DNA from: a virus
Taxonomy: Duplodnaviria; Caudoviricetes
DNA length: 64,000 nt
Strand: one strand, 5' to 3'
IMG/VR virus record: IMGVR_UViG_3300036797_000054
Location: 1-64,000 of that record
Positions 5,429 to 60,893 of the stretch are shown piece by piece. Every line of letters begins with the position of its first letter. Position 1 is the stretch's first letter. The notes below the pieces were generated by a model. The model worked only from the letters and a program-made list of their open reading frames with translations. It was not told the origin of the DNA and searched no databases. The translations under genes were made by a program, and so were the position numbers.

Positions 5429-5698
5429 ATGTCAGCGAGCATGTCTTTGTCGGTCAGCGGGACGGAGCTTCCACGCGAGGGCCGGTCGCCTCTCCTCGCG
5501 TTCGCCACACAGTCGGGCGGCCATGTCGTCCACGCCGCGGTGTATGACCCCGAGCAGCAGTCCGAGTTGCCTGCGGGCGCGCTCGCCGAGGGTGAGATGT
5601 TCGTGGCAGGCACCGACGGCCAACCGAGGCACATAGGCAAAGGCCGTGTCTACGGCCAGATCACAGGAGGTGCGAATGCGGTACACGACGACGGTTGA
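5429..5698 (+). CDS. hypothetical protein
   Basis: GGAGGG RBS before ATG. Confidence 0.55.
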   Translation: MSASMSLSVSGTELPREGRSPLLAFATQSGGHVVHAAVYDPEQQSELPAGALAEGEMFVAGTDGQPRHIGKGRVYGQITGGANAVHDDG

Positions 5699-7403: not shown

Positions 7404-10259
7404 ATGCCATACGAGGGCATGGTGGGAACGGTCGGGCTACCGCCGCGCGAGGCGTTCGTTCAGCGCGAGGCCGAAAAAACGCGCGAGCGCTCGCACACGG
7501 CGCTGGAGTTCCCCGACTGGGCGATCCGCATCCCCGAGGCGCAGACGGGGATGCTCGACTTCACGCGCTATCCCTACCAGCGAGAGCCATACGACGTGCT
7601 CGGCCGCGTGCCGAACGCCGTGGTGGAGAAGGGCACGCAGGTCGGCTTCTCGACGCTGTGCTTGCGCTGGGCACTGTGGGTGGCAGACGAGCTCGCGGGC
7701 ACCGTCATGTACGTGTTCCCGGTCAAGGATCAGGTCTACAAGTTCTGCTGCGCTGCCGACGAGCGCGTGCTCATGGCCGATGGCAGTATCAAGCGCATCG
7801 CCGAGGTCGAGCGCGGTGATCGCGTGATGACCGAGGATGCCGACGGCAAGCCAGTCGCTGATCGGGTCACGGGCGTGTGGGAGACGGGGGTGCAAGAGGT
7901 GCTGCGCGTCGGAATGGCTGGAGGTCGCAGGATCAGGGTCACCGGGCGTCATCGCTTGATGACGAGGCGAGGCTGGCTCCCTGCCGAGTTCCTACGTGTC
8001 GGCGATGAGGTGCGCGTGCCGGGCCTGTTGCCCAGCGAGCACGCCGCGAACGTCTCGCGTGAGGATGCGTTTCTGCTTGCCCTGTGGATGGCCGAGGGCA
8101 CGAAGTCGGCCAAAGGGTTCGTGTTCGCCAACGCGTTGCCGCAGATACAGCAGCGCGTGCGCGAGATCGCATTCGCGCGGGGCTGGGGCGTCAGCGAGTA
8201 CGCGCCCAATGTGTTCGGCTTGACCATGAACGGCCGTCGGCGCGCAGACGACTCACCGATGGGCATCCTGCGAAGTGCGGGTGTGCTCGGCATGCGGACT
8301 GACACGATCAAGATTCCGCCCGCGCTGATGAGCGCGAGGCGCGATGTGCAGGAAGAATTCATGCGGACCTACATTGCGTGCGACGGCTGCGTGGGGGCAA
8401 GAGAGATCACCGTCGCCTCCGCCAGCGAGCGGATGATCCGAGACTTGCGCGTGATGGCGTCCCAGAACGGGATGCTCGGGACCGTCCGCGTGCAGCAGCC
8501 GACGAATCACAAGACGATGCGCGCTGGCAAGCCATCGTGGGTGCTGGCCTTCGGATCGCGTCCTGCGCGCGAACGCATCAAGTCGATGGGTATCCCCGGC
8601 AAGCCGGTGGTGATGCGCAAGCACCGCAAGGGGACACGCTTCGCTGCACGCGACGGCTGGGCAAAGGTCGAGATGATCGAGCCTGACGGCTACGACGAGA
8701 CGTATGACCTGAGCATCGCCGAGCGCCACTCCTACTACCTAGAGGACGCGCTGACGCACAACTCCGACCAGCGCGTCAAACCCGTGATCCGCGGCAGCGA
8801 ATACCTGCGCGATCGCATGGCATTCGATGACCCCGACAACAAGGGGCTGAAGAAGATCGGCAACGGCTACGTCTATTTCGTCGGCTCGCAGTCGGTATCG
8901 GAACTGGACTCGGTGCCCGCCAACGCGCTCGTGCTGGATGAGTACGACGAGCTCGCCCAGGTGAATATCCCCGTGGTCGAGCGACGCGTGGGCGCGGCCG
9001 ACAGCCCGATGATCCGGCGCATCGGCGTGCCGACGCTCGACAACTACGGCATCGAGCGGGAGTACCGCTCCACCGACATGCGGCGGTGGACGGTCAAGTG
9101 CGAGGCGTGCGGGACTTGGCAGCGCATCCGTTGGGAGAACATGCGCTACGAGGAACTGGCTCCCGAAGAATTCAAGGCGTGGCGCGTGTGCATCGAGTGC
9201 GAGCGCGCGATCGACGTGCGCAAGGGTGAGTGGGTGGCCGAGTACCCCGACCGGCCGCGCATCGGCTTTCACGCCCCGCGGCTGATCGTCCCCAACGCCA
9301 ACCTCGGCGAGGTCGTCAAGGCGCGGCTCTCGGAGAAGGAGGAGGAGAAACGCGCCCACTACAACCGCGACCTGGCCGAGCCGTTTGAGACGCCCGAGAG
9401 CCGTCTGAGCGTGCCAGCTATCCAGAGCTGCCGCCGCGCCGACATCCACTTGGTCGAGAGCTACGTCGGGTTCAACTGGGTGACGATGGGGATCGACGTG
9501 TCCACGACGCGCGGGCTGCACGTCAGGATCTCCGAGCACCTGAACGAGCACGAAAAGCGCGTGCTGTGGGTCGGCGTCGTGGACGCGCTGATCACAGCCA
9601 ACCCCGACGTTCCTGATCAGTCGGCGCTCCGCGCGCTCACGCAGAAGATGGCCGCGTACAAAGTGCACATGGCGTGCATCGACCACCTGCCCGACGGCCT
9701 GTTCGCCAAAGCCTTCGCCGCGGCGCATCCTGGCCGCGTCTACCTCATCGCCTACAACACCGACTACCGCGCGCGCGAGAGCATCAAAATCCCCAAGACG
9801 ACCGATACCGAACCGCTCGTCACGATCAAGCGCACCGAGTGGATCACGGCGACGCTCGACTTGTTCAGGATGCAGCGCAACCTACTGCCGCTGAACGAAC
9901 CGCTGCCCAAGGGTGTCGAGGGCAAGACCTACGAGGAACACCTGCGCAACATCGTCAAGCAGCGCAAGAAGGACAGCATCGGGCGCGAATACTACGGCTA
10001 CGAGGACACCGGCCCCGAAGATTTCCTCCAGGCCGAGGTCTACGACCACGCGGCCACGCGCGTGCTTCAGCAGCGGCTCATGGAACAGGCCGTCGCCGTC
10101 GGCGTCCAGCGCCAGGAGGAGGTCAAGCCGCCGGACCCGACTCCGAACCTCGCGGAGTGGGACGGCCGCGCGCTGGAGCACGATGCGGAGCCCTGGCGTG
10201 ATACATATGTTTCAGGATGGACCGATGAGTACCGACCGTATGGTGATGACTCTGACTGA
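7404..10259 (+). CDS. terL: terminase large subunit (lambda gpA-like), intein-containing
   Basis: EKGTQVGFST Walker A variant, LVLDEYD Walker B, CEAC/CIEC zinc motif, TMGIDV nuclease motif. Start 7404 lies 7 nt after TAAGCT. Confidence 0.9.
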   Translation: MPYEGMVGTVGLPPREAFVQREAEKTRERSHTALEFPDWAIRIPEAQTGMLDFTRYPYQREPYDVLGRVPNAVVEKGTQVGFSTLCLRWALWVADELAGTVMYVFPVKDQVYKFCCAADERVLMADGSIKRIAEVERGDRVMTEDADGKPVADRVTGVWETGVQEVLRVGMAGGRRIRVTGRHRLMTRRGWLPAEFLRVGDEVRVPGLLPSEHAANVSREDAFLLALWMAEGTKSAKGFVFANALPQIQQRVREIAFARGWGVSEYAPNVFGLTMNGRRRADDSPMGILRSAGVLGMRTDTIKIPPALMSARRDVQEEFMRTYIACDGCVGAREITVASASERMIRDLRVMASQNGMLGTVRVQQPTNHKTMRAGKPSWVLAFGSRPARERIKSMGIPGKPVVMRKHRKGTRFAARDGWAKVEMIEPDGYDETYDLSIAERHSYYLEDALTHNSDQRVKPVIRGSEYLRDRMAFDDPDNKGLKKIGNGYVYFVGSQSVSELDSVPANALVLDEYDELAQVNIPVVERRVGAADSPMIRRIGVPTLDNYGIEREYRSTDMRRWTVKCEACGTWQRIRWENMRYEELAPEEFKAWRVCIECERAIDVRKGEWVAEYPDRPRIGFHAPRLIVPNANLGEVVKARLSEKEEEKRAHYNRDLAEPFETPESRLSVPAIQSCRRADIHLVESYVGFNWVTMGIDVSTTRGLHVRISEHLNEHEKRVLWVGVVDALITANPDVPDQSALRALTQKMAAYKVHMACIDHLPDGLFAKAFAAAHPGRVYLIAYNTDYRARESIKIPKTTDTEPLVTIKRTEWITATLDLFRMQRNLLPLNEPLPKGVEGKTYEEHLRNIVKQRKKDSIGREYYGYEDTGPEDFLQAEVYDHAATRVLQQRLMEQAVAVGVQRQEEVKPPDPTPNLAEWDGRALEHDAEPWRDTYVSGWTDEYRPYGDDSD
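7746..8762 (+). mobile_element. intein with LAGLIDADG homing endonuclease (339 aa)
   Basis: N-terminal CCAADERVLMADGS, block B VTGRHRL, LLALWMAEG and FMRTYIACDG, C-terminal TYDLSI...LTHN followed by Ser; exteins rejoin as QVYKF-SDQRVKP. Confidence 0.95.
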
Positions 10260-10429: not shown

Positions 10430-10450
10430 ATAGAGGCGCGGACGTACGCT
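10430..10450 (+). promoter_or_regulatory. putative late promoter (class III), leaderless
   Basis: ATAG-N11-TACGCT, 7 nt before GTG 10458. Confidence 0.75.
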
Positions 10451-15497: not shown

Positions 15498-15505
15498 CTT
15501 TGCCA

Positions 15506-17644
15506 GTGAGTCGCCTAGCCACCATCCGCGAGTCCGCCGAACGGATCACCGGCCTCAGCGTGCAGCCGCTCGCCGAGGTGCACCGCCTGCAAGAGACTGA
15601 GCAGGAGCTTCGAGGCAAACAGCGCGAGCTCCAGGATCTCGCGTACTCGATCCTCGACTACACGCAGGGTGCACCACAGGAGATGAAGGCGCAGGAGCGC
15701 CGCCGCCTGGCGCAGCGCGCACGCGTCGTCTGGCAGCAGGACCCGCAGTACGGCGGCACGATCAACCTGCTGAACGAGTTCGTGCTGGGCCGTGGCATCC
15801 CGAAGCCGCAGGCCGTAGACGAACAGGTCCAGGATGAGATCGATGAGTTCTGGGCCGACGCCGACAACCAGCGCATCCTCACGACGCACTCTGCGCAGGT
15901 GCGGCTCAACACCGACCTCTCGCTCCAGAGCAACGTGTTCCCGCTCGTCTACGACGAAGGCGAAGATGGACAGGTCAAGCTCGGGTTGCTCGATCACGAC
16001 ACGGTGGAACAGGCGGTGCGCGACCCCGACGCCCGTCTGCGCATCCTCTACTACTTCACCAGGTCCTACAACCGCCAGTGGGACGTGCGGAAACACACCT
16101 ACGTGGTGAGCAAAGAACGCGAGAAGATCAGGTATTACGAGGAGTTCCGCAACCTCAAGGACGCCGAAGAGGATCGTGCCAACGGCGTGCGCACCGAGGA
16201 CTTGCCGGACATTCCTTCCACCTTGGTCGGGCGCGGGCGCGTGCTGCACGTCGCGATCAACCGCACGATGGAGCAGGCGTTTGGCATCCCCGAGATCGCC
16301 CGCACGATCCGCTGGCTCACGGCCTACAACGACCTGATGCGCGCCCGCGTGGACATGGCGAAGGCGGCTGCGTCGATCATCATGCGCCGCAAGCTCAAAG
16401 GCGGCGCGGCCGCGATGACGCAGCTCGCCTCACAGGCACTGCTCCAGGCCGGTACGACGCCGCAGTCGCCTATCGACCCGATGACGCTCGGGCAGGCTCC
16501 CAAGCCCGGTGCGGTGATCGAGGAGAACGACTACGTGGAGCACGAAGCGTTCAACCTCAACTCGGGCTCGTCCTCGGCGATGCAAGACGCGCAGATGATT
16601 CGCTCGCAGTACAGCGTCGGCACCGGGTGGCCCCAGTCCTACCTCGGCGATCCCTCGGCGACCGACCTGTCCACGGCGACGACGCTGGAGCTCCGCGTGC
16701 TCAAGATGGTCGAAGCGCGGCAGCAGGTGCTGGAGGACTTGATCACGACGTTGATCAACCACAAGATCAGGCGCGCGATCGAAACGAACAGGCTGTCGAA
16801 GTTCCGGCCGATGACGGCCGAGGAGAAGAAGCGTGAGCGGATGCGCATCGAATCCGAACAGGAGGCCGAACGGCCGCCGGGCGCTCCCGCGCCGATCGCC
16901 CAGGCCAACAGCAACGGCACGCGCGCATTGCACTTGATCGGCGGCACCGAGGCCGAAGAGGACGAGGAACCGCCAGCGGGGCATGTCGCCCGTGATTTCA
17001 CGTTCCAGGTGTCGATGCCCTCACCTCTGCGCCGTGCCATGGGCGACCTCCTCACCGGCGTCTCGCTCATCGCCAAGACGTTCGACCCGAACTGCTCGAA
17101 CATCGAGCTCAGCCGCACGCTGCTCGGCATCGCGCTCGGCGAGGGTCTGGAAATCGAGGACCCCGGCGCGGCAGTCGAGCGCATCTTCCCCGAGGGCTAT
17201 GTCGATCCGATGGTCGCCGCGGCGCAGGCGCAGCAGCAACCCGAAATGCCGCCTGGCAGCTTTGGCACCGAAGATCAGCCGGGGTTCGGCTCGCCAGCGT
17301 TCGGCGCGATCGGCGCAGACGGCCAGTTCCACCCGGCGAACAACCCCTACGGCACTCCGCAGGCCGCGCGCGATCCTGCCGAATCGATGCAGCAGGCCGA
17401 GGTCGCCGATCAGATCGCAGACCGACGGCTCGTGCTGCTGCACAACCGCGAGGGTGAGCCCATGGCTCCGCAGGTGCAAGAGGCCGTCGTGCAGCGTGCG
17501 CTCAAGCGCATGTCTCCGTCGGATCGCGCTCGTATCGCCGGGGCGGCTCTTGGTGACGCGCGTGGCGAGCAGGCCGACGTTCTCGCCGATGGGGTGCTCG
17601 CCCCGGCACTCGCCAGCGCGCTTGCATCGCTCGTTCAGCAGTAG
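15506..17644 (+). CDS. portal protein
   Basis: Size, position upstream of MuF gene, and VQDEIDEFW, LHVAINR..AFGIPEI, GTGWPQSYLGD..LSTA segments typical of portals. Confidence 0.85.
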   Translation: MSRLATIRESAERITGLSVQPLAEVHRLQETEQELRGKQRELQDLAYSILDYTQGAPQEMKAQERRRLAQRARVVWQQDPQYGGTINLLNEFVLGRGIPKPQAVDEQVQDEIDEFWADADNQRILTTHSAQVRLNTDLSLQSNVFPLVYDEGEDGQVKLGLLDHDTVEQAVRDPDARLRILYYFTRSYNRQWDVRKHTYVVSKEREKIRYYEEFRNLKDAEEDRANGVRTEDLPDIPSTLVGRGRVLHVAINRTMEQAFGIPEIARTIRWLTAYNDLMRARVDMAKAAASIIMRRKLKGGAAAMTQLASQALLQAGTTPQSPIDPMTLGQAPKPGAVIEENDYVEHEAFNLNSGSSSAMQDAQMIRSQYSVGTGWPQSYLGDPSATDLSTATTLELRVLKMVEARQQVLEDLITTLINHKIRRAIETNRLSKFRPMTAEEKKRERMRIESEQEAERPPGAPAPIAQANSNGTRALHLIGGTEAEEDEEPPAGHVARDFTFQVSMPSPLRRAMGDLLTGVSLIAKTFDPNCSNIELSRTLLGIALGEGLEIEDPGAAVERIFPEGYVDPMVAAAQAQQQPEMPPGSFGTEDQPGFGSPAFGAIGADGQFHPANNPYGTPQAARDPAESMQQAEVADQIADRRLVLLHNREGEPMAPQVQEAVVQRALKRMSPSDRARIAGAALGDARGEQADVLADGVLAPALASALASLVQQ

Positions 17645-17650
17645 CGATCA

Positions 17651-17703
17651 TCCGCAGCACCGAGTAGGCTGCGCCGCGCTGAACGACCTGGAGGTGCGAG
17701 ATG
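17651..17703 (+). promoter_or_regulatory. putative class II promoter plus shared extended RBS
   Basis: TCCG-N10-TAGGCT-N4-CGCGCT...CTGGAGGTGCGAGATG; same layout at 59581-59636. Confidence 0.55.
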
Positions 17704-18204
17704 GCAAATGTAGAGCTGGTGCAGCCCGTCATGGGGCGCGAGGAGTCGGAGGCGGTGCAGGTAGTCGCGCGCGCAGTGCTGGGCAAACGCATCCTCGTGG
17801 AGCACGACGAGGACAAGCTGCGCGGCGCGCTCGAAGCGCTCGAACACGCGCCAATCGCGGGCGGCGCGAAGGGGCGGCCCGACGGCGACCGACCCGCAGG
17901 GGCGCGCGGCACCGACCCGCACACGAGCAAGGCGGCCGCCGAGCGCATCGCGCCGCAGGCCGCGTCCAATCGCGGGCAAATCCTGCGCTTCATCCTCTCG
18001 GGTGGTCGCAGTGGGCGCACCAACGACGAGATCAGTCGCCACTACCCGCAGATGCGCGGGCCGTGGAAGCGCGTCAGCGAGCTGGCCCGCGAAGGCTGGA
18101 TCGTCGCGCTACCCGGCATCACTCGTTCGGGCAGCAGCGGTATGGAGCAGCAGGTCTATGCCCCGGCGACCGCCGCGTACGAGTGGATGGAAAAGCAGTC
18201 ATGA
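17701..18204 (+). CDS. putative winged-helix DNA-binding protein
   Basis: ARGTDPHTSKAAA...QILRFI...GRTNDEI...KRVSELAREGWI. Confidence 0.65.
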   Translation: MANVELVQPVMGREESEAVQVVARAVLGKRILVEHDEDKLRGALEALEHAPIAGGAKGRPDGDRPAGARGTDPHTSKAAAERIAPQAASNRGQILRFILSGGRSGRTNDEISRHYPQMRGPWKRVSELAREGWIVALPGITRSGSSGMEQQVYAPATAAYEWMEKQS

Positions 18205-18225
18205 TCCGTGGCGCGTAGCAGGTAG

Positions 18226-18246
18226 ATAGACCTCCTGCCGTAGCTT
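18226..18246 (+). promoter_or_regulatory. putative late promoter (class III) driving small RNA
   Basis: ATAG-N11-TAGCTT. Confidence 0.7.
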
Positions 18247-18251
18247 TCAGG

Positions 18252-18348
18252 GTGGCTCGCACTCCCGCCGCGAGCTTCGGAGCCGACGCTGGCACTCGGG
18301 ATCTCGCACCTCCCCTGACCGCCAGCGTCGGCTCTACGCCTTCGGAGC
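18252..18348 (+). ncRNA. candidate antisense small RNA against GGAGGTGCGA(G)AT ribosome-binding sites
   Basis: Perfect 14-bp stem 18280-18293/18321-18334 whose loop carries ATCTCGCACCTCC (18301-18313); 6-bp stem 18255-18260/18270-18275; ends approximate. Confidence 0.65.
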
Positions 18349-18354
18349 AGTCCA

Positions 18355-18375
18355 ATAGACGGTCAGACTTACGAT
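18355..18375 (+). promoter_or_regulatory. putative late promoter (class III), leaderless
   Basis: ATAG-N11-TACGAT, 7 nt before GTG 18383. Confidence 0.75.
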
Positions 18376-18382
18376 CAGTCCC

Positions 18383-18922
18383 GTGACGCAAGCGAGCGAG
18401 CGAGACGCGATTGAGTCCCTGGCTGAGGCGACCGTGCGCCCGGCGGTAGCTGCGCGCGGGCAGACGGTACGCCTCATCCTGGCCTGTGCACTGGCGGCCT
18501 TTCTGGCGGCCGCGATCATCGCTATCCCGACGACGATCGTCCTGAGCGAAGCGATCAGCCGCGGCCCCGAACAGCAGGCGCAGGCCAACTCGCTCGCCAA
18601 CTGCGAAGCGCAGGCCAACTCGCGACCCACGGGTAATGGACGGACGTTGCTTCAGCGCATCGCCCTCGAAATCGTGCTGGTCGATGAGCGGCACGCGCCA
18701 ACTGCCGAGCGGGCAACGGCGCTCGAACGCACCAACTCGCTACTCCGGGCTGAATCTGCGGTGCCGCAGCGCCTGCCCGAAGGCTTCCCCACGCGTGTCA
18801 GCTCGTTGGCCGAGCTGCTGCCGCTGCTCAAGACGCTGCCGCCGATCAACTGCAAGGAACGCCTCCAGCTCTCTGTCGTTCAGTCCACTCCGACCGTCCG
18901 GGAGGTAAGCGCTCATGGATAG
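18383..18922 (+). CDS. membrane-anchored protein
   Basis: TM segment LILACALAAFLAAAIIAIP; two Cys in the extracellular part. Confidence 0.7.
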   Translation: MTQASERDAIESLAEATVRPAVAARGQTVRLILACALAAFLAAAIIAIPTTIVLSEAISRGPEQQAQANSLANCEAQANSRPTGNGRTLLQRIALEIVLVDERHAPTAERATALERTNSLLRAESAVPQRLPEGFPTRVSSLAELLPLLKTLPPINCKERLQLSVVQSTPTVREVSAHG

Positions 18923-20002: not shown

Positions 20003-22528
20003 ATGGCCGTCCGCACTCGCGAAGCACCGCCTCCGACTGCTCGGCCGACGACTCCGCCGCCTCCGCTGCCGCCACAGGCGACGCCACCCGAACGTACTAG
20101 CCACGTCGCTGCTGTCGCCGCCGCGGCGACGGCCGCCGCGCTCGCCGCGGGCGACGGCAAGACAGTCCCGACGCCGCCGCCGATCGCGCTCGTTCGCGCC
20201 GCTGTAGCAACGCTCGTCGACGCGATGAATCAGGTGTTCCTCGAACGCCGCTCGACGTTTCTCCAGTACATCACCACGACGGCGCAGCGACAGATGCCAG
20301 CCGTTGCACACGACCGCGTGGCGCTGCTCGCCGCCGAGGAGATGCGCAACGAGGCCGAGTTCCAGCGCAAGTCACGCCTGCGCCTCGAACGCGACTTGCC
20401 CGAGGCGCTGCGCATCGCGGACCCAGGCGAACGCGCCAAGGCCGTCGCCAAGCTGCTCGAACGCGAGAAGCGCTTCCTTGTCCAGCGTGAACAGGCGGCG
20501 GCGCAGCGGCTGGTCGCGTCGCTCGAAGCCGAACTGCTCAAGCAGGCGTCGCCGCAGGGAGCCTACTGGCAGCTCTCGCCGCTGATCCGCAATCACTGCC
20601 TGCGCTGCCTGGCGATGGCGGGCAAGTTCTGGCCGTGGGAGGTCTTGGAAGCCAACCGCCTGCCGATGCACCCGCACTGCGGCTGCTCGCTGCTGTCGCT
20701 GAACGAGGCCATCGCGCGCAAGCTGATGACCGCCAACGACGTGCCCGACAAGGACGACGCGGCGAAGCTCGCGCGCTCACTGCTCGACCAGGCGGCCCAA
20801 GTCGAAGAGGGGCTGAGCGAGGAGCAGGTGCACGCATTGACCGACCGGCTACACCTGCATGTCGCGGAGGCGAGCGTGCGCGAGTGGCTGCGCTGGGGCA
20901 AGGGCAGCTCGCACGGCGGTGAGTTCCGCTCCAAGCTCGGGGGCGATCCCGGCGTGGCATCGACCGAGGAGGCACTACGCCACTTGCACGGCACGATCGC
21001 CGGGCTCAGTGGCCGCCACGTCACGATCCGCGGCGAGGCGCACACCGTTCCCAAGGCCGAGGACTGGGAGCACAAGATCGGCTCGCACACGTACAGCTCG
21101 CCGTGGGGCACCACGCGGATATACCGCGATGGGCTGCTGCTGAGCGAGGATCACCAGGATCTCGGCGGCGAGGAATACCACCCGCCGGGTGACGTGCCCG
21201 ACGCGCCGACGCTGCCGCTCGGCGGCAGGCAGGAGGGTTGGGCGACCGATGCTTTGCTGCCACGACTGCCTCCGAAGGACGCAGGCGATCTCGTGCCGGA
21301 CTACTCGCGCACAAAGCTGGAGCTCGGCAAGGGCGCGGGCGGTTCCACCGGCGCGAAATGGGCCTTCAGCAAGTCGGGCGATCGCTGGCTGATCAAGACG
21401 TACAAGGGCAGCCAGGATCGCGTTGCGACTGAGCTGCTGGCGAACGCGATCTACCGGGAGCTCGGCGCGACGGTCGCGCCCGCAGGCACCTACTACGCCG
21501 ACCAGCATGGCAAGCCGATCGTGGCGCTGGCCTACCCGACGCTGCCGGGAGGCACGCGCAAGATTGAGCAGCCCTCGCGTGAGCTCGGCAAGCACTTCAT
21601 GGCCGACGCGCTGGTGGGGAACTGGGATGTCGTCGGGCTCTCCGACGACAACGTGCTCTGGCAGCCCGATGGCAGCCCGGCGCGACTCGACCAGGGCGGC
21701 ACGTTCGAGTTCCGTGCACAGGGCGCACCCAAGCCCTACGGGCCGGTCCCGACAGAGGTTTGGACGATGATGTCGCCCAAGGGCCAGGCGTTCGACAAGA
21801 TGGACGTGAACGAGCCGGAAATGCGCGACCAGGCGGCGCACATCGCGCAAACGCTCACCCCCGAGCACGTTCACGCGCTCGTCAAAGCCGCACCGTTCGC
21901 GGACAAGGCGATGGCGCAGCGCATCGAGCAGGGCCTGAACAATCGCGTGCAATGGATGCACGACTTCTCGCGCGGCGAGGAGAACGTGCCGCAGCCGCTC
22001 GCGGGCAAAGCGGTCGGCACCGTCCTCGGCAAAGACCAGGAGGAGCACCTGCACCCGACGCCCGAGCAGCACGCGGCACTGCGCCGGTTCACGAGCGACG
22101 AACGTCTCCAGCGGGTGCTGCAAGAGCGGCTGCGCTCGGGCGAGAAGCTGTCCACGGTCCAGCGCGAGACACGCAACGGCCTGGATCGTCTCATCGACCA
22201 CACGCAGACGCCAGAGGACTTGACGCTCTACCGCACGCTCGACCCCGACCAGCTCCCCGATCTGGACAAGCTCGTCGGCAAGGTCGTCAAAGACAAAGCG
22301 TTCGCCACGGCGACCACGAGACGGGCGGCCGCACGCGAAGCGCCGGGGATGCTTCAGATTCACGTCCCGGCTGGCTCGCGCGCGCTGCATACCCCCTCGA
22401 TCGAGGACATCGGAGAGGACGACCCGCACACTGAGGTCATGCTGCCGCGTTCGTCGCGCCTGCGCGTCAAGCGCGTGCAGCGCCGCGGCGGCCGCACGAT
22501 CATCCACGCGGTGGCTCTCGATGGCTGA
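20003..22528 (+). CDS. MuF-like minor head protein fused to kinase-like and ADP-ribosyltransferase-like domains
   Basis: HCLRC...PMHPHCGCSL (MuF); GGSTGA..WLIK..ELLAN..DALVGNWD..DN..RLDQG (HipA/PI3K-like); LYR..DKAFATAT..EVMLPR (VIP2-like ART). Confidence 0.8.
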   Translation: MAVRTREAPPPTARPTTPPPPLPPQATPPERTSHVAAVAAAATAAALAAGDGKTVPTPPPIALVRAAVATLVDAMNQVFLERRSTFLQYITTTAQRQMPAVAHDRVALLAAEEMRNEAEFQRKSRLRLERDLPEALRIADPGERAKAVAKLLEREKRFLVQREQAAAQRLVASLEAELLKQASPQGAYWQLSPLIRNHCLRCLAMAGKFWPWEVLEANRLPMHPHCGCSLLSLNEAIARKLMTANDVPDKDDAAKLARSLLDQAAQVEEGLSEEQVHALTDRLHLHVAEASVREWLRWGKGSSHGGEFRSKLGGDPGVASTEEALRHLHGTIAGLSGRHVTIRGEAHTVPKAEDWEHKIGSHTYSSPWGTTRIYRDGLLLSEDHQDLGGEEYHPPGDVPDAPTLPLGGRQEGWATDALLPRLPPKDAGDLVPDYSRTKLELGKGAGGSTGAKWAFSKSGDRWLIKTYKGSQDRVATELLANAIYRELGATVAPAGTYYADQHGKPIVALAYPTLPGGTRKIEQPSRELGKHFMADALVGNWDVVGLSDDNVLWQPDGSPARLDQGGTFEFRAQGAPKPYGPVPTEVWTMMSPKGQAFDKMDVNEPEMRDQAAHIAQTLTPEHVHALVKAAPFADKAMAQRIEQGLNNRVQWMHDFSRGEENVPQPLAGKAVGTVLGKDQEEHLHPTPEQHAALRRFTSDERLQRVLQERLRSGEKLSTVQRETRNGLDRLIDHTQTPEDLTLYRTLDPDQLPDLDKLVGKVVKDKAFATATTRRAAAREAPGMLQIHVPAGSRALHTPSIEDIGEDDPHTEVMLPRSSRLRVKRVQRRGGRTIIHAVALDG

Positions 22529-28222: not shown

Positions 28223-28624
28223 ATCTGGCTTTTTACCGACCGCGGTTTCTACAGCGTCGTGCAGCATCGCGAGGAGCACGACCTGTTGCTCGTGCGCGCG
28301 CGTGTGCGCAAGGATCTCGACGCGCTGAAGCCGCTGATCCCCGGCCTGCGCGTGTCCGTGACGCATGACGCGGACTATCCCTACCGCGCGCTCGTCACGC
28401 GCAAGGAGTGGGCACGCGCGCTCGAACGCCTGACGGCCGAGCTCGACTACGACAATTTCAAGGACGCGGTGAAGAAACGCCAGGGCGATCAGCGAGCGTC
28501 GATGTATCTGCGCGTGTGGTCAGTGCTCCAGGGCCTGACTCCACGGCGCGTGCGCTACAAGCAACTGCGTGCGCTGTACGACGGCACGGGTCGCCACTAT
28601 GGCATCGGCGAAAGCGTCCGCTGA
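28223..28624 (+). CDS. conserved hypothetical protein (xWLFTxxGFYSVV...VRAR...DYxYR...YxNFK type)
   Basis: Family-like N-terminus extends upstream of the GTG at 28259 to an ATC at 28223. Confidence 0.65.
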   Translation: MWLFTDRGFYSVVQHREEHDLLLVRARVRKDLDALKPLIPGLRVSVTHDADYPYRALVTRKEWARALERLTAELDYDNFKDAVKKRQGDQRASMYLRVWSVLQGLTPRRVRYKQLRALYDGTGRHYGIGESVR

Positions 28625-29203: not shown

Positions 29204-29246
29204 TGCTACCATCTGCTGCTCTTAGGCAACCAACTGGAGGTGCGAC

Positions 29247-30380
29247 ATGAAGGCAGCGAAATCACTCACCGAGCTGGCGGCTGAGCTCGAAGCGCAGAAG
29301 GAGCGCCGCCGCGACGTGGTCGTGGACTCGTCCGAGATCACGGTTCTGACCAGCGATCGCAGCGGCACCGAGATCACGCTCCCCGACGGCACGGCGCTCG
29401 TCCCGCAGCGGCTGTTCCACCGACAGCTCGGGCAGACCCTCGGGGTTCGCGCCGACCTGTACGACCGGCTGCGCCACGTTCACCCGATGCTGTTCGACCA
29501 GCTCGTCAACGGGCTCCTCGACCGGATGCCCATGGAGAACGACGGCCAGCGCGTGCGCCGGATGCTGCGCACCTACAGCGACGGCGGCGGCATCGACGGC
29601 CAGGGCGTCGCTCGCGCGCTGCTCTCCGACAGCTACCGGCGTATCGACAACATCGACCTCGCCGAGGCCGTGCTGCCGATCATCGGCAACATCCACGGTG
29701 CCGAAGTCACCGACTGCGAGCTGACCGAGACGCGCATGTACATCAAGGTGCTCGTCCCGACGATGCAGCGCAGCCTCAAGGAGCTGGTCGAACCGGGCCA
29801 CCACGAATTCCTCGACCCCGAGTCGCCCGACTACGTGCAGTGCGGGCTCGTGATCACCAACAGCGAGGTCGGTCACGGTGCGCTCTCGATCGAGCACATG
29901 CTGTTCCGGCTCGTGTGCACCAACGGCCTGATCGTCGGCAAGGCACTCCGTCGCAGTCACGTCGGCCGCAAGGTCGAGGTCGCCGAGGACTACTCGATCT
30001 ACTCCGACGAGACGGTCAAGGCCGACGACAAGGCGCTGATGATGAAGGTGAGCGACGCCGTGACGCACGCGGTGGACGAGGCCAAGTTCGACGCGCTGGC
30101 CCGGCAGTTCGCCGCCACGACCGCAAGCGCGCAGATCGAACACCCCGTCGAGGCGATGAAGGTGCTGACGAGCAAGATCGGCCTCACCGACACCGAGGGC
30201 GAATCCGTGCTGACGCACCTGATCCAGGGCCGCGATCTCTCGCAGTTCGGCGCGATCAACGCGCTGACGCGCGCGGCCCAGGACGTGGAGTCCTACGACC
30301 GCTCGGTCGAGCTGGAGCAGATCGGCTCGCAGGTCATGGGCATGCCGGGCGCGGAGTGGCGCGAGCTCGCCGCCGCGTAA
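29247..30380 (+). CDS. DUF932-family protein
   Basis: ARALLSDSYRRIDN, ITNSEVGHGA, RLVCTNG, NALTRAAQ; GGAGGTGCGAC-ATG. Confidence 0.85.
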   Translation: MKAAKSLTELAAELEAQKERRRDVVVDSSEITVLTSDRSGTEITLPDGTALVPQRLFHRQLGQTLGVRADLYDRLRHVHPMLFDQLVNGLLDRMPMENDGQRVRRMLRTYSDGGGIDGQGVARALLSDSYRRIDNIDLAEAVLPIIGNIHGAEVTDCELTETRMYIKVLVPTMQRSLKELVEPGHHEFLDPESPDYVQCGLVITNSEVGHGALSIEHMLFRLVCTNGLIVGKALRRSHVGRKVEVAEDYSIYSDETVKADDKALMMKVSDAVTHAVDEAKFDALARQFAATTASAQIEHPVEAMKVLTSKIGLTDTEGESVLTHLIQGRDLSQFGAINALTRAAQDVESYDRSVELEQIGSQVMGMPGAEWRELAAA

Positions 30381-30489: not shown

Positions 30490-31668
30490 GTGCCCAGCGC
30501 TCAGCTTGATGTTCGTCGCCAAGTGCGCGAGGCGGTCGAGGCCAAGACGACCGCCGAGCGTCCGCCGCGGACTCTCAGGCATGAACTGCCCGACGGCAGC
30601 ATCGCATCGCGGTTCACCAGTCGCGACTACACGCATGTCACGACAGCATCCGGCCACAAAGCCGAGCCGCTAGCTGGGCACAGTCCTCAACGCGTGGTCA
30701 GTTGGCACGAGAGCCACGCGGGCGCGACGCGGCGCGGGCGCGATATGGAGGGCGGCGGCTGGCGCAACGTGCTGGTCGAGCCGATCAACGCGCCGCCGGG
30801 AGACGCGCCGCCGCCGGTCGATCCTGACGCACCGGCGGGATCAGCCCCGCCGACAATCGACCCCACCGAACCAGGCGCAACGGACGCACTCCGAGGCTTT
30901 CGCCCTGGACCGTCTGATCCGAGCGATGCTGGCGACGGGAGTGCCGTCACCGAAGCCGCGACCCAAACGAACACGGAGGCCACGATGAGCGTGCAAGAGG
31001 CAGTCACAGCGTCGATCGAGGAGGCGCTCAGCGTGACCGAGCCGGACGACGGCGGTGACGGCTTCGTGGTGGAGGCGTCGGCGGCTGCGGAGATCCGCAA
31101 GGCCGTCGCCGACGCGCTGGGCGTCACCGAGTCGGCCAAGACGGCTGGGTACTCAGTCACGCACGCGCCGATCGGCAAAGGCGGCACGAACTGGATCACC
31201 AAGACCGCGCCCGGCAACACGGGCCAGCTCCCCGCCTACATCCAGAACGTCCGCAACGGGATTATGAAGGGGCCACCTCCCGTGGACGAGTCCAAGGCGA
31301 CCGAGATCGCCATCGGGCGCATCCGCGATTGGGCCGAGGGCAAGGGCAACGTCAAACCCGAAGTCCGCGCCGCGGCCGCGAAGGCGATCGCCGAGTTCGA
31401 GGCGATGAAAGGCAAGAACGACGCAAGCAAAGCGACCAAGAGCGTCAAAGAGGCGGCAGAGATCGCCGCGCATCAACAGCTCCTCTCCGACGAGCATCTG
31501 ATCGAGCTGGTCGAGGCCGACTATTCCGAGCGCGTGGCGATCGCCGAGGCGGACGCCGCTCCCGGCAAGAAGTTCTGTGTCAAGGACCGCGCCATGGTGA
31601 CGCCCGACGACAAGGGCAACTGCCCCAAGTGCGGTGCCGATCTCAGCAAGGTCAAAGCCACCAAGTAG
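30490..31668 (+). CDS. head-associated protein with many [ILV]xE[AS] motifs and C-terminal zinc ribbon
   Basis: NWI..GQLPAYIQNV..AIGRIRDWAEG..AAAAKAIAEFE helical domain; CPKCG; possible internal start at 30985 with GGAGG. Confidence 0.7.
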   Translation: MPSAQLDVRRQVREAVEAKTTAERPPRTLRHELPDGSIASRFTSRDYTHVTTASGHKAEPLAGHSPQRVVSWHESHAGATRRGRDMEGGGWRNVLVEPINAPPGDAPPPVDPDAPAGSAPPTIDPTEPGATDALRGFRPGPSDPSDAGDGSAVTEAATQTNTEATMSVQEAVTASIEEALSVTEPDDGGDGFVVEASAAAEIRKAVADALGVTESAKTAGYSVTHAPIGKGGTNWITKTAPGNTGQLPAYIQNVRNGIMKGPPPVDESKATEIAIGRIRDWAEGKGNVKPEVRAAAAKAIAEFEAMKGKNDASKATKSVKEAAEIAAHQQLLSDEHLIELVEADYSERVAIAEADAAPGKKFCVKDRAMVTPDDKGNCPKCGADLSKVKATK

Positions 31669-59580: not shown

Positions 59581-59636
59581 TCCGAACGCTGCCATAGGCT
59601 CGCTCGCGCTACGCCAACCACTGGAGGTGCGAAATG
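59581..59636 (+). promoter_or_regulatory. putative class II promoter plus shared extended RBS
   Basis: TCCG-N10-TAGGCT-N4-CGCGCT...CTGGAGGTGCGAAATG. Confidence 0.55.
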
Positions 59637-60893
59637 CCCGATGCAGCCGTAACCGACGAGTCAGCCGACGAGGCGCTGATCACCGGCAAGAGCTCACCCG
59701 AGGATGCAGCCGAGACGGGAGCTGCCCGCGAGGCAGCCGCGCTCGCTGACCCATCCGACGCGACACTGCCTGCGCGCCATCAGTACGACCGCACGCAAGT
59801 CGAGGTCATCAAACAGACCGTCGCGAAAGACCTTACGCCTGCGGAGATGGCGTGGTTCCTGGAGGTCAGCGCGCGCTACGGGCTGGACCCGCTGCTGAAG
59901 GAGATCTTCGCGGCCAAGTTCAGCGGCAGCAACGGCCCGGTCGCGATCTTCACGGGCCGCGACGGCTACCTCAAGGCGGCCAAGCACGGCGGCAAATTCG
60001 TGCGCATGACCAGCCACGTCGTGCGCGAGAAAGACGAGTTCGTCAAGATGATCGACACCGCGGCCAGCGAGGAAGAGGGCCGCGAGATCCTGACGATCCG
60101 CCACGTCGCCGAGGGCTTTGGCACCGAGAAGCGCGGCAAGATCGTCGGCGCGTACGCAATGGTGTGGACGACTGCCTCGAAGCACCCGTGGTATGCCGAT
60201 GCGCCGTGGGAGGAATTCGGCGAGAAGCGTCAAGCGCCCGGCGGCAAGCCCGGCACCTGGACGCTCGACAACGACAAGGGCTACCCCGAGCAGATGATGG
60301 TCAAGGTGCCCGAGTCGATCGCGCTGCGCAAGGCGTGCGGCCTCTCGGGCCTCTACGCCGAGGAGGAGCTTGCCCAGCAGATCGCCGCCGCCAACGAGCG
60401 GCCTGCGCTGAGCAGCGCTGGCGGCGCAGCTCCCACGGTCGAGTACCCCGAGGATGAGCGCGGCCAGTTGATCGAGGCGATGGTCAACCGCGCTAATGAG
60501 CTCGTGCCCGGCGCGTTCCGTGCCGCGAAGGTGCGCCTGGAACTGGGCACCGGCGATGACGAGCGCCTCGATGCGTTCACCGAGCGCCTGCGCAAGTTCA
60601 TCGCCCAGCGCGAGCCCAACGATCCGCTCGTCGTGGTCGAGACAGTCGCTGTCGATGAGTCCGAGGTCGAGCAGCCCGAGGACGGCGAGCACGAGGACGG
60701 CGAGCAGGCCGAGGGCGAGTCGCCCACGGGCGACATCACCACCACGGCCGATCGCCTGAAAAGCGCGGTCGCCGACATCGAAGCGCAACTGGATGATCCC
60801 GACCTGTCCCCCGAGGACCGGCGCAAGGCTGAGGCCGAGCTGGTGCAGCTCAACGGCGAACTGGAGGCCGAGGAAGCCGACGGCGGCGCATGA
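59634..60893 (+). CDS. RecT/Red-beta family ssDNA-annealing recombinase
   Basis: YGLDPLLKEI, TGRDGYLK, IVGAYA.V, PEQMMVKVPESIALRKA. Confidence 0.85.
   Translation: MPDAAVTDESADEALITGKSSPEDAAETGAAREAAALADPSDATLPARHQYDRTQVEVIKQTVAKDLTPAEMAWFLEVSARYGLDPLLKEIFAAKFSGSNGPVAIFTGRDGYLKAAKHGGKFVRMTSHVVREKDEFVKMIDTAASEEEGREILTIRHVAEGFGTEKRGKIVGAYAMVWTTASKHPWYADAPWEEFGEKRQAPGGKPGTWTLDNDKGYPEQMMVKVPESIALRKACGLSGLYAEEELAQQIAAANERPALSSAGGAAPTVEYPEDERGQLIEAMVNRANELVPGAFRAAKVRLELGTGDDERLDAFTERLRKFIAQREPNDPLVVVETVAVDESEVEQPEDGEHEDGEQAEGESPTGDITTTADRLKSAVADIEAQLDDPDLSPEDRRKAEAELVQLNGELEAEEADGGA

Follow-up and report, generated by a model that had tools for sequence, protein, structure and literature searches.

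The window analysed here, the first 64 kb of a 122,744-bp IMG/VR virus record that is rated linear and about 80% complete, contains a promoter-like element and two predicted RNA hairpins between a winged-helix-like gene and a leaderless gene for a 179-aa protein (Table 1). The GC content is 66%, and nearly every gene lies on the + strand. PHROG/Pfam matches were obtained for a large terminase (7422-10259), a portal protein (15500-17644), a MuF/ADP-ribosyltransferase fusion, a tail sheath and a tape measure protein, and the phage was therefore assigned to the myoviruses. A large head-region protein encoded at 20003-22528 matched the ADP-ribosyltransferase exoenzyme family at its C-terminus (phrog_3895, E = 3e-6), and the syntenic gene in relatives gave NUDIX plus ADPrib_exo_Tox matches. 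Collagen Pfam matches were also seen near the portal region in relatives. A whole-genome count of the 12-mer GGCGCGACCGGC gave 14 copies on the + strand and none on the - strand, and the probable source is a repeated unit of coding sequence, for instance of the Gly-X-Y or collagen-like kind.

No cultured relative was found among 50,697 cultured phage records by nucleotide and portal-protein searches, and no prophage relative in the 185,579 species genomes searched. The presence of -10-only promoters and frequent leaderless starts suggests an actinobacterial host. Relatives were collected by portal-based searches, and nine phages including this one (G000), with portal identities of 57-100%, were found to have the same cassette. 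A portal clade at 42-46% identity (L003 and L169) was without the winged-helix-like gene, the RNA and the start-site tag described below. When the winged-helix-like protein was used as query for loci and homologues, G001 was the sole match. Scanning the collection with a 14-mer of the tag gave more than 114 single chance matches and was uninformative, and a combined scan with the hairpin-1 loop and the anti-tag retrieved only G001 plus L139, the latter being a false match that was rejected as an ordinary ribosome-binding site on the other strand.

Table 1. Features of the cassette and tagged gene starts within the window (positions are those of the window; energies are accessibility-corrected).
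Feature	Position	Strand	Description	Method or energy
Promoter-like element ATAGAC-N9-TAGCTT	18226-18246	+	Class WTAG-N11-TAnnnT, precedes the RNA	
Inferred transcription start	18253-18254	+	7 nt past the -10 hexamer, foot of hairpin 1	
Hairpin 1	18254-18276	+	7-bp stem 18254-18260/18270-18276, loop ACUCCCGCC	RNAfold
Hairpin 2	18280-18334	+	14-bp perfect outer stem 18280-18293/18321-18334, inner 5-bp stem 18296-18300/18314-18318	Sequence and RNAfold
Apical loop AUCUCGCACCUCC (DNA ATCTCGCACCTCC)	18301-18313	+	Candidate seed complementary to the start-site tag	
3' tail UACGCCUUCGGAGCAGUCCA	18335-18354	+	Possible weak termination region, 3' end inferred	
Second promoter ATAGAC-N9-TACGAT, with GTG of leaderless gene	18355-18385	+	Same class; 179-aa gene 18383-18922	
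Tag, 13/13	17690-17702	+	Winged-helix-like gene 17701-18204	-19.7 kcal/mol
Tag, 10/13	5666-5675	+	112-aa ORF starting at 5676	-16.1 kcal/mol
Tag, 12/13	29236-29248	+	DUF932 gene 29247-30380	-14.0 kcal/mol
Tag, 12/13	59623-59635	+	RecT gene 59634-60893	-10.2 kcal/mol
Tag, 13/13	63664-63676	+	HerA/DUF87-like ATPase gene from 63675, past the window end	-19.3 kcal/mol

The order of the cassette in the nine phages is the winged-helix-like gene (with or without a small gene), a WTAG-N11-TAnnnT element, hairpin 1, hairpin 2, a second promoter and a leaderless membrane-protein gene, and the arrangement of the second promoter with this gene recurs in the relatives. The original prediction had called the first of these genes HTH; its searches gave weak MarR/winged-helix hints. 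The promoter motif preceding the RNA proved to be a real member of a defined class, with nine sites in G000 and 13 in G001, all of them on the + strand, and a matching element was present at the same place in the cassettes of eight of the nine phages. The distance between the -10 hexamer and the foot of hairpin 1 was constant in the eight folded RNAs, and the same distance was read directly in L167. Sites of this class lie at 10430, 18226, 18355, 19976, 30463, 32741 and 54470 of the window and at 68710 of the genome. Almost all of them are followed, 6-8 nt downstream, by the start codon of a long ORF of the morphogenesis region (among them the MuF fusion and the ORFs at 30490, 32768 and 54499), the exceptions being the promoters preceding the RNA. 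Since the promoter is only 6-8 nt away from the start codon, the structural mRNAs are leaderless. The transcription start of the RNA given in Table 1 was predicted from this fixed spacing between the -10 hexamer and the start codon of leaderless genes. The late character proposed for the RNA fits these motifs; because its promoter belongs to a class that otherwise precedes leaderless structural genes, co-expression with the late genes, and thus late timing of the RNA, is plausible.

The predicted structure of hairpin 2 agreed with the original prediction in its two arms, GAGCCGACGCTGGC and GCCAGCGTCGGCTC, which pair perfectly when the sequence is read, and in the position of its loop. RNAfold gave the same hairpin (z = -3.09 for 18205-18385) and added an inner 5-bp stem, so that the apical loop is exactly 13 nt. 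Between the outer arms there are 27 nt in this phage and 23-40 nt across the relatives. The heptamer GCACCUC was invariant in the apical loops of all nine RNAs, and the seed was unpaired in the nine predicted folds, with an unpaired probability of 0.72-0.98 for the GCACCUC core (mean 0.95 in this phage, where opening the seed costs 0.2 kcal/mol). The arms of hairpin 2 are different in each phage (GAGCCGACGCTGGC, GGACCCGGCGCC, GCGCCACCGCCGCTCG and GGAGCGGCTGGCGC are examples), and they form a perfect, GC-rich stem of 11-16 bp, with a short inner stem towards the loop. In an alignment of eight sequences (a MAFFT alignment including L167 was structurally inconsistent), 12 aligned pairs were 97.9% paired and 8 of the 12 pairs had changed on both sides, a result reached by 0 of 500 shuffles, a figure that is not a true probability since the sequences are related; partners slid out of register were 34-55% paired. 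The stem is thus maintained by compensatory changes in the relatives.

Hairpin 1 folded with a stem of 6-7 bp and with CCGCC in its loop in eight RNAs (RNAfold). Its stem varies among them (GCUCGC, GCUCGG, CCCGGG, GGCCCG, GGUCCG and GGCCAG, among others), and direct reading of L167 gave the stem GCCGCG with likewise a CCGCC-containing loop. This conserved loop, at 18261-18269 and at the same place in eight relatives, reads ACUCCCGCC, UCCCGCC, CACCGCCA and similar on a covarying stem; no partner for its CCGCC was found. The near copy of the anti-tag that had been pointed out in hairpin 1 (CTCGCACTCCC, 18256-18266) does exist. It is not a conserved second seed, and we read it as coincidence, since the covarying stem of hairpin 1 makes up its 5' half and the relatives have no anti-tag there.

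No family, C4 included, reached its gathering score in an Rfam scan of the whole window, and ARAGORN detected neither a tRNA nor a tmRNA in it. A consensus terminator scan of 17600-18500 gave no terminator after hairpin 2; the tails of the relatives are short and contain U (CCUUUCU, GCCGCUUUUCGG and CCGUCUUUCG). From its sequence and predicted fold, the element is a conserved, structured, predicted non-coding RNA gene. The RNA would be about 75-90 nt long, from about 18253 to about 18340, if it terminates past hairpin 2; as there is no canonical terminator at this place, the hairpins could also stand in the 5' portion of a longer transcript that continues into the gene at 18383.

The 13-nt apical loop is the exact complement of a tag, GGAGGUGCGAGAU (DNA GGAGGTGCGAGAT), that spans the Shine-Dalgarno (SD) sequence and the spacer and takes in the AU of the start codon. 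As had been claimed, exact copies precede the winged-helix-like and HerA/DUF87-like genes, the ATG overlapping the last two bases, and the other three starts in the window carry two copies with one mismatch and one 10-mer (Table 1). Further start-site copies were found in the 122,744-bp record at 76711, 101328, 114061 and 117066, that at 101328-101340 being an exact 13-mer, and looser variants lie at the gene starts at 72326, 111149 and 119605. Over the whole genome the 10-mer core has nine copies on the + strand, all at start codons, and one on the - strand, which is the loop. An exact 13-mer on the minus strand is expected by chance in about 0.0025 copies (base-composition estimate). In relative G001 the 10-mer has 13 forward copies, all in the ribosome-binding position preceding a start codon, and one reverse copy, again the loop. 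When matches of at least 10 nt were counted, G000 had 10 sites on the + strand (nine at start codons) versus the loop itself and one other on the - strand, and G001 had 20 on the + strand versus the loop alone. The complementarity between loop and tag is real and beyond chance. A regulon of five genes, as first proposed, is too small: about 10 genes are tagged in this genome, and there are about 13-20 sites in the closest relative.

The tagged set includes the winged-helix-like gene, DUF932, RecT, the HerA/DUF87-like ATPase (the predicted labels of these last three being backed by our searches), an AAA ATPase, an RtcB ligase and several small ORFs. The RtcB-like RNA ligase gene (genome 117077-118393; locus L155 13077-14393) has the tag GGGAGGTGCGAaGTG, and RtcB adjoins genes with SAS (start-associated sequences) in phages of Cluster K as well. 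Many tagged genes are preceded, 22-30 nt upstream, by a -10 hexamer of their own, and their leader contains GCAACCGAT; such leaders are found at 29236 and 59623 of the window, at 101328 of the genome, and at 28281, 48401 and 112591 of G001 (loci L018-L024). At some of the tagged copies in G001 a palindrome, GCGACC-N3/4-GGTCGC, abuts the -10 hexamer; it may be an operator, and it resembles the inverted repeats of the Cluster K 'extended SAS'. Pairing was evaluated by duplex plus opening energies, as the RNAcofold model bars pairing of a loop inside a closed hairpin with a second strand. Tagged starts gave -7 to -20 kcal/mol, other SD-led genes -1 to -10 kcal/mol and leaderless ones +3 to -5 kcal/mol.

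For each phage, the loop was set against the ribosome site of that phage's adjacent winged-helix-like gene (Table 2). In six more distant relatives, which are genome fragments, co-variation was measured against the tag of this adjacent gene only. The longest helix was used as score, broad duplexfold runs including the stem flanks having been noisy. At least four separate kinds of joint change in loop and tag were seen (L147, L152, L142 and L167), which bears out the co-conservation expected from the original prediction; the fit was poor in L144 and L140, the helix of the latter having just 7 bp because of an extra G in the tag. Counting the homologous gene of seven relatives, the phage's own loop was the best or equal-best match to its tag in six of eight phages. 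In a permutation test 30 of 40320 permutations reached the cognate score, and 10 of 5040 when G001 was left out, figures that are a guide only because the phages are related and are not true probabilities. In L149 the RNA and its loop (CGCACCUCC) are kept and the homologue of the winged-helix-like gene is leaderless and lacks the tag, therefore this gene is not the sole target. The homologue has neither SD nor tag in L149 (3839-4399) and in L168 (about 4467), where it starts 7 nt past a TAnnnT hexamer; the same gene thus switches its mode of translation between related phages.

Table 2. Apical loops and tags of the adjacent winged-helix-like gene in each phage.
Phage	Loop	Tag	Pairing and changes
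G000, G001	AUCUCGCACCUCC	GGAGGUGCGAGAU	13 bp
L167	ACUUCGCACCUCC (UACUUCGCACCUCC)	GGAGGUGCGAGGUG	14 bp, one G-U inside and one at the end; ATG to GTG met by U to C
L147	AUCGCACCUC (CAUCGCACCUC)	GAGGUGCGAUG	11 bp; 2-nt deletion on both sides
L152	GCACCUCUC	GAGAGGUGC	9 bp; SD core changed on both sides, GGAGG to GAGAGG with CCUCC to CCUCUC
L142	UGCACCUC	GAGGUGCA	8 bp; G to A met by C to U
L144	UGCACCUCC	GGAGGUGUG	Poor fit: 7 Watson-Crick pairs and two G-U
L140	CGCACCU	GGGUGCG	Poor fit: 7 bp only, one G-U, bulged G

Since the loop is the exact complement of a tag shared by many genes, one predicted RNA probably switches off the tagged set when the late genes come on. Repression of the tagged regulon in trans at late times is the mechanism best supported by the sequence comparisons, and we regard it as moderately probable. 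The RNA would be transcribed from its own WTAG-N11-TAnnnT promoter, of the class used for the leaderless structural (late) mRNAs, and its 13-nt apical loop, exposed beforehand, would pair in trans with the tag on the mRNAs. This pairing would occlude the binding site of the 30S subunit and possibly expose the mRNA to decay, so that translation of the tagged early and middle genes would be shut down together at the onset of late transcription, with the leaderless late mRNAs exempt for want of a tag site. If this reading is true, the tag consensus of each relative would follow its loop: GAGGTGCA in L142/L143, GGAGGTG(c/t)(a/g) in L144, GAGGTGCGATG in L147 and GAGAGGTGC in L152.

Several other explanations were weighed against trans repression. 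The element might act in cis, either as 3' UTR or terminator of the winged-helix-like mRNA or as 5' leader of the gene at 18383, its loop folding onto the gene's own ribosome site about 600 nt upstream in an autoregulation that involves no regulon in trans. The RNA does lie invariably just downstream of the winged-helix-like gene, all the measured co-variation involves the tag of that gene, and no clear terminator separates the units. However, a promoter of a defined class intervenes at a fixed distance between this gene and hairpin 1 in eight of nine phages, L149 keeps RNA and loop beside an untagged gene, and exact 13-mers are found 46-83 kb away at other gene starts. We consider action in cis alone to be rather unlikely. 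It is less probable still that hairpin 2 is a purely structural element (a terminator, a stabiliser or a processing site) whose loop resembles the tag without any function in pairing. A long GC stem directly after a gene would suit such a role, and the analogous hairpin of Cluster K is kept even where its loop is unrelated to the tag. Against this, loops of 23-40 nt far exceed those of terminators (27 nt in this phage, 3-8 nt being expected for an intrinsic one) and there is no U-tract, which makes a plain terminator unlikely; moreover, GCACCUC is invariant in nine loops that have otherwise diverged, and the flanking loop positions shift in step with the tag.

The motif CACCUCC, present in eight of the nine loops, is the anti-SD core found at the 3' ends of 16S rRNA. 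The original prediction had raised the idea that the loop could affect host mRNAs as an anti-SD mimic; in a general host shut-off, such an RNA would titrate strong SD sites, whether on host or on phage mRNAs, and favour the leaderless late mRNAs. This proposal was weakened by L152, whose loop CACCUCUC tracks its own GAGAGG tag rather than the rRNA. In addition, conservation and co-variation reach 4-6 nt past the SD into the spacer and start codon, and ordinary SD-led phage genes pair weakly, so that we hold general mimicry to be very unlikely. About as little can be said for the view that the 13-mer is a double-stranded DNA operator of a phage regulator, for instance the adjacent winged-helix-like protein, the inverted copy being one more operator, and we judge it slightly the more improbable of these last two. 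Copies of an operator co-evolve within a genome and would likewise yield co-variation of loop and tag, a gene with weak hints of DNA binding is adjacent, and a separate palindrome is present at some tagged promoters of G001. Yet the tag stands in a fixed register with the start codon, overlapping the ATG, with a strand bias of 9:1 or 13:1, and in every case the one inverted copy is displayed by the apical loop of a hairpin that is maintained by compensatory changes, which point to selection on RNA and not on duplex DNA.

Finally, it is extremely improbable, and close to refuted, that the product is a leaderless micro-protein from the 44-codon ORF at 18252-18386, opened by a GTG 5 nt past the -10 hexamer: as the original prediction held, there is no convincing gene here, since the eight relatives conserve neither frame nor peptide across the element, reading the loop in other frames or without a spanning ORF and giving unrelated peptides, the indels of the loop are not multiples of three, and the GTG at +5 differs from the +6 to +8 of true leaderless genes.

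Trans repression by a cognate small RNA would tie SD-led and leaderless translation to the temporal control of gene expression, and the tag/anti-tag pairs, since they differ between related phages, could then serve as orthogonal translational switches. Antisense RNAs that block ribosome-binding sites are already well known. The c4 antisense RNA of P1 and P7 serves immunity and has one target (icd/ant), in its own operon; its loop varies in step with the target from one related phage to another. Like the RNA proposed here, c4 is a small phage RNA whose loops pair around a ribosome-binding site and block translation (summarised in PMC12197685). In the present case, unlike in c4, the dispersed genes whose tag fits the single loop number about 10-20, and the RNA is tied to the late programme by its promoter class. 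The T4 endoribonuclease RegB and the translational repressor RegA, both proteins, recognise GGAG or sites that are loosely defined. As in the reading proposed here, they are encoded by the phage and shut off a group of early mRNAs at the ribosome-binding regions during the transition from early to late expression, whereas the proposed effector is here an RNA that would find its 13-nt address through base pairing. Among bacterial trans-acting sRNAs, those that have C/U-rich anti-SD seeds in their hairpin loops likewise pair across the SD and the start codon in several mRNAs; their sites are imperfect natural ones, in contrast to the identical, engineered-looking tag shared by the targets here, and the RNA described here is phage-encoded and would be aimed at the phage itself. 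No description of an identical 13-nt tag on dispersed genes of a phage together with a single anti-tag RNA was found in the literature searched, and a review of phage sRNAs from 2025 lists nothing comparable (PMC12197685).

The closest parallel is with the SAS of actinobacteriophages, an asymmetric motif of about 13 bp, reported in 2011, whose copies are nearly all in one orientation and occupy the ribosome-binding position of about 10-19 genes, for the most part non-structural (PMC3203893). The SAS/ESAS design is known from Cluster K mycobacteriophages and Cluster EF Microbacterium phages (PMC3203893; PMC7302621), and its role was still called unknown in 2024 (PMC11373665) and 2025 (PMC12699233). 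Tag and SAS have in common a motif of about 13 nt in one orientation at the ribosome-binding site, conserved beyond the pairing with 16S rRNA and usually including the ATG, and many copies with a promoter-bearing leader of their own (here the -10 hexamer and GCAACCGAT, sometimes with the palindrome). They differ in sequence, GGAGGTGCGAGAT here versus GGGATAGGAGCCC in Cluster K, and the phages studied here are unrelated myoviruses. No relatedness to GGGATAGGAGCCC or GGGAAAGGACCCC, or to Clusters K and EF, was detected, the motif being different and the nucleotide and portal searches of cultured phages having given no match; by sequence, the tag is an analogue of the SAS and not a homologue.

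The likeness extends to an inverted copy, since a single SAS of the K1 phages is turned the opposite way (Pope et al., PMC3203893). In Anaya (JF704106 59,789-59,919; L157 48790-48920) we found this inverted SAS (12/13) in the gp96-gp97 gap, within the apical loop of a long, conserved intergenic hairpin that is preceded by another hairpin (z = -4.84). This hairpin is common to 145 Cluster K phages, and the anti-SAS loop occurs in the K1-like ones only: Ekdilam, with a canonical SAS, has a degenerate form of it, and the same hairpin lacks it in SirPhilip, Keshu and Pixie, although Pixie still carries SAS (Pope et al., PMC3203893). AnnaSerena, of Cluster EF, had no loop copy and only an inverted copy with three mismatches in the stem of a terminator-like hairpin. 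By contrast with Cluster K, the inverted copy is conserved and co-varying across the clade studied here, and the parallel with Cluster K is accordingly suggestive and not general. More tentatively, and with rather more doubt than for the switch in this phage, SAS may be address tags read by a cognate small RNA of the phage, in a translational switch from early to late expression that leaderless late genes escape and that has recurred in independent actinophage lineages (this myovirus clade and Cluster K1). If true, this would offer a concrete and testable mechanism for a puzzle that has been open since 2011, and the K1 mycobacteriophages, which have the same layout and grow on Mycobacterium smegmatis, make the idea testable with existing genetics.
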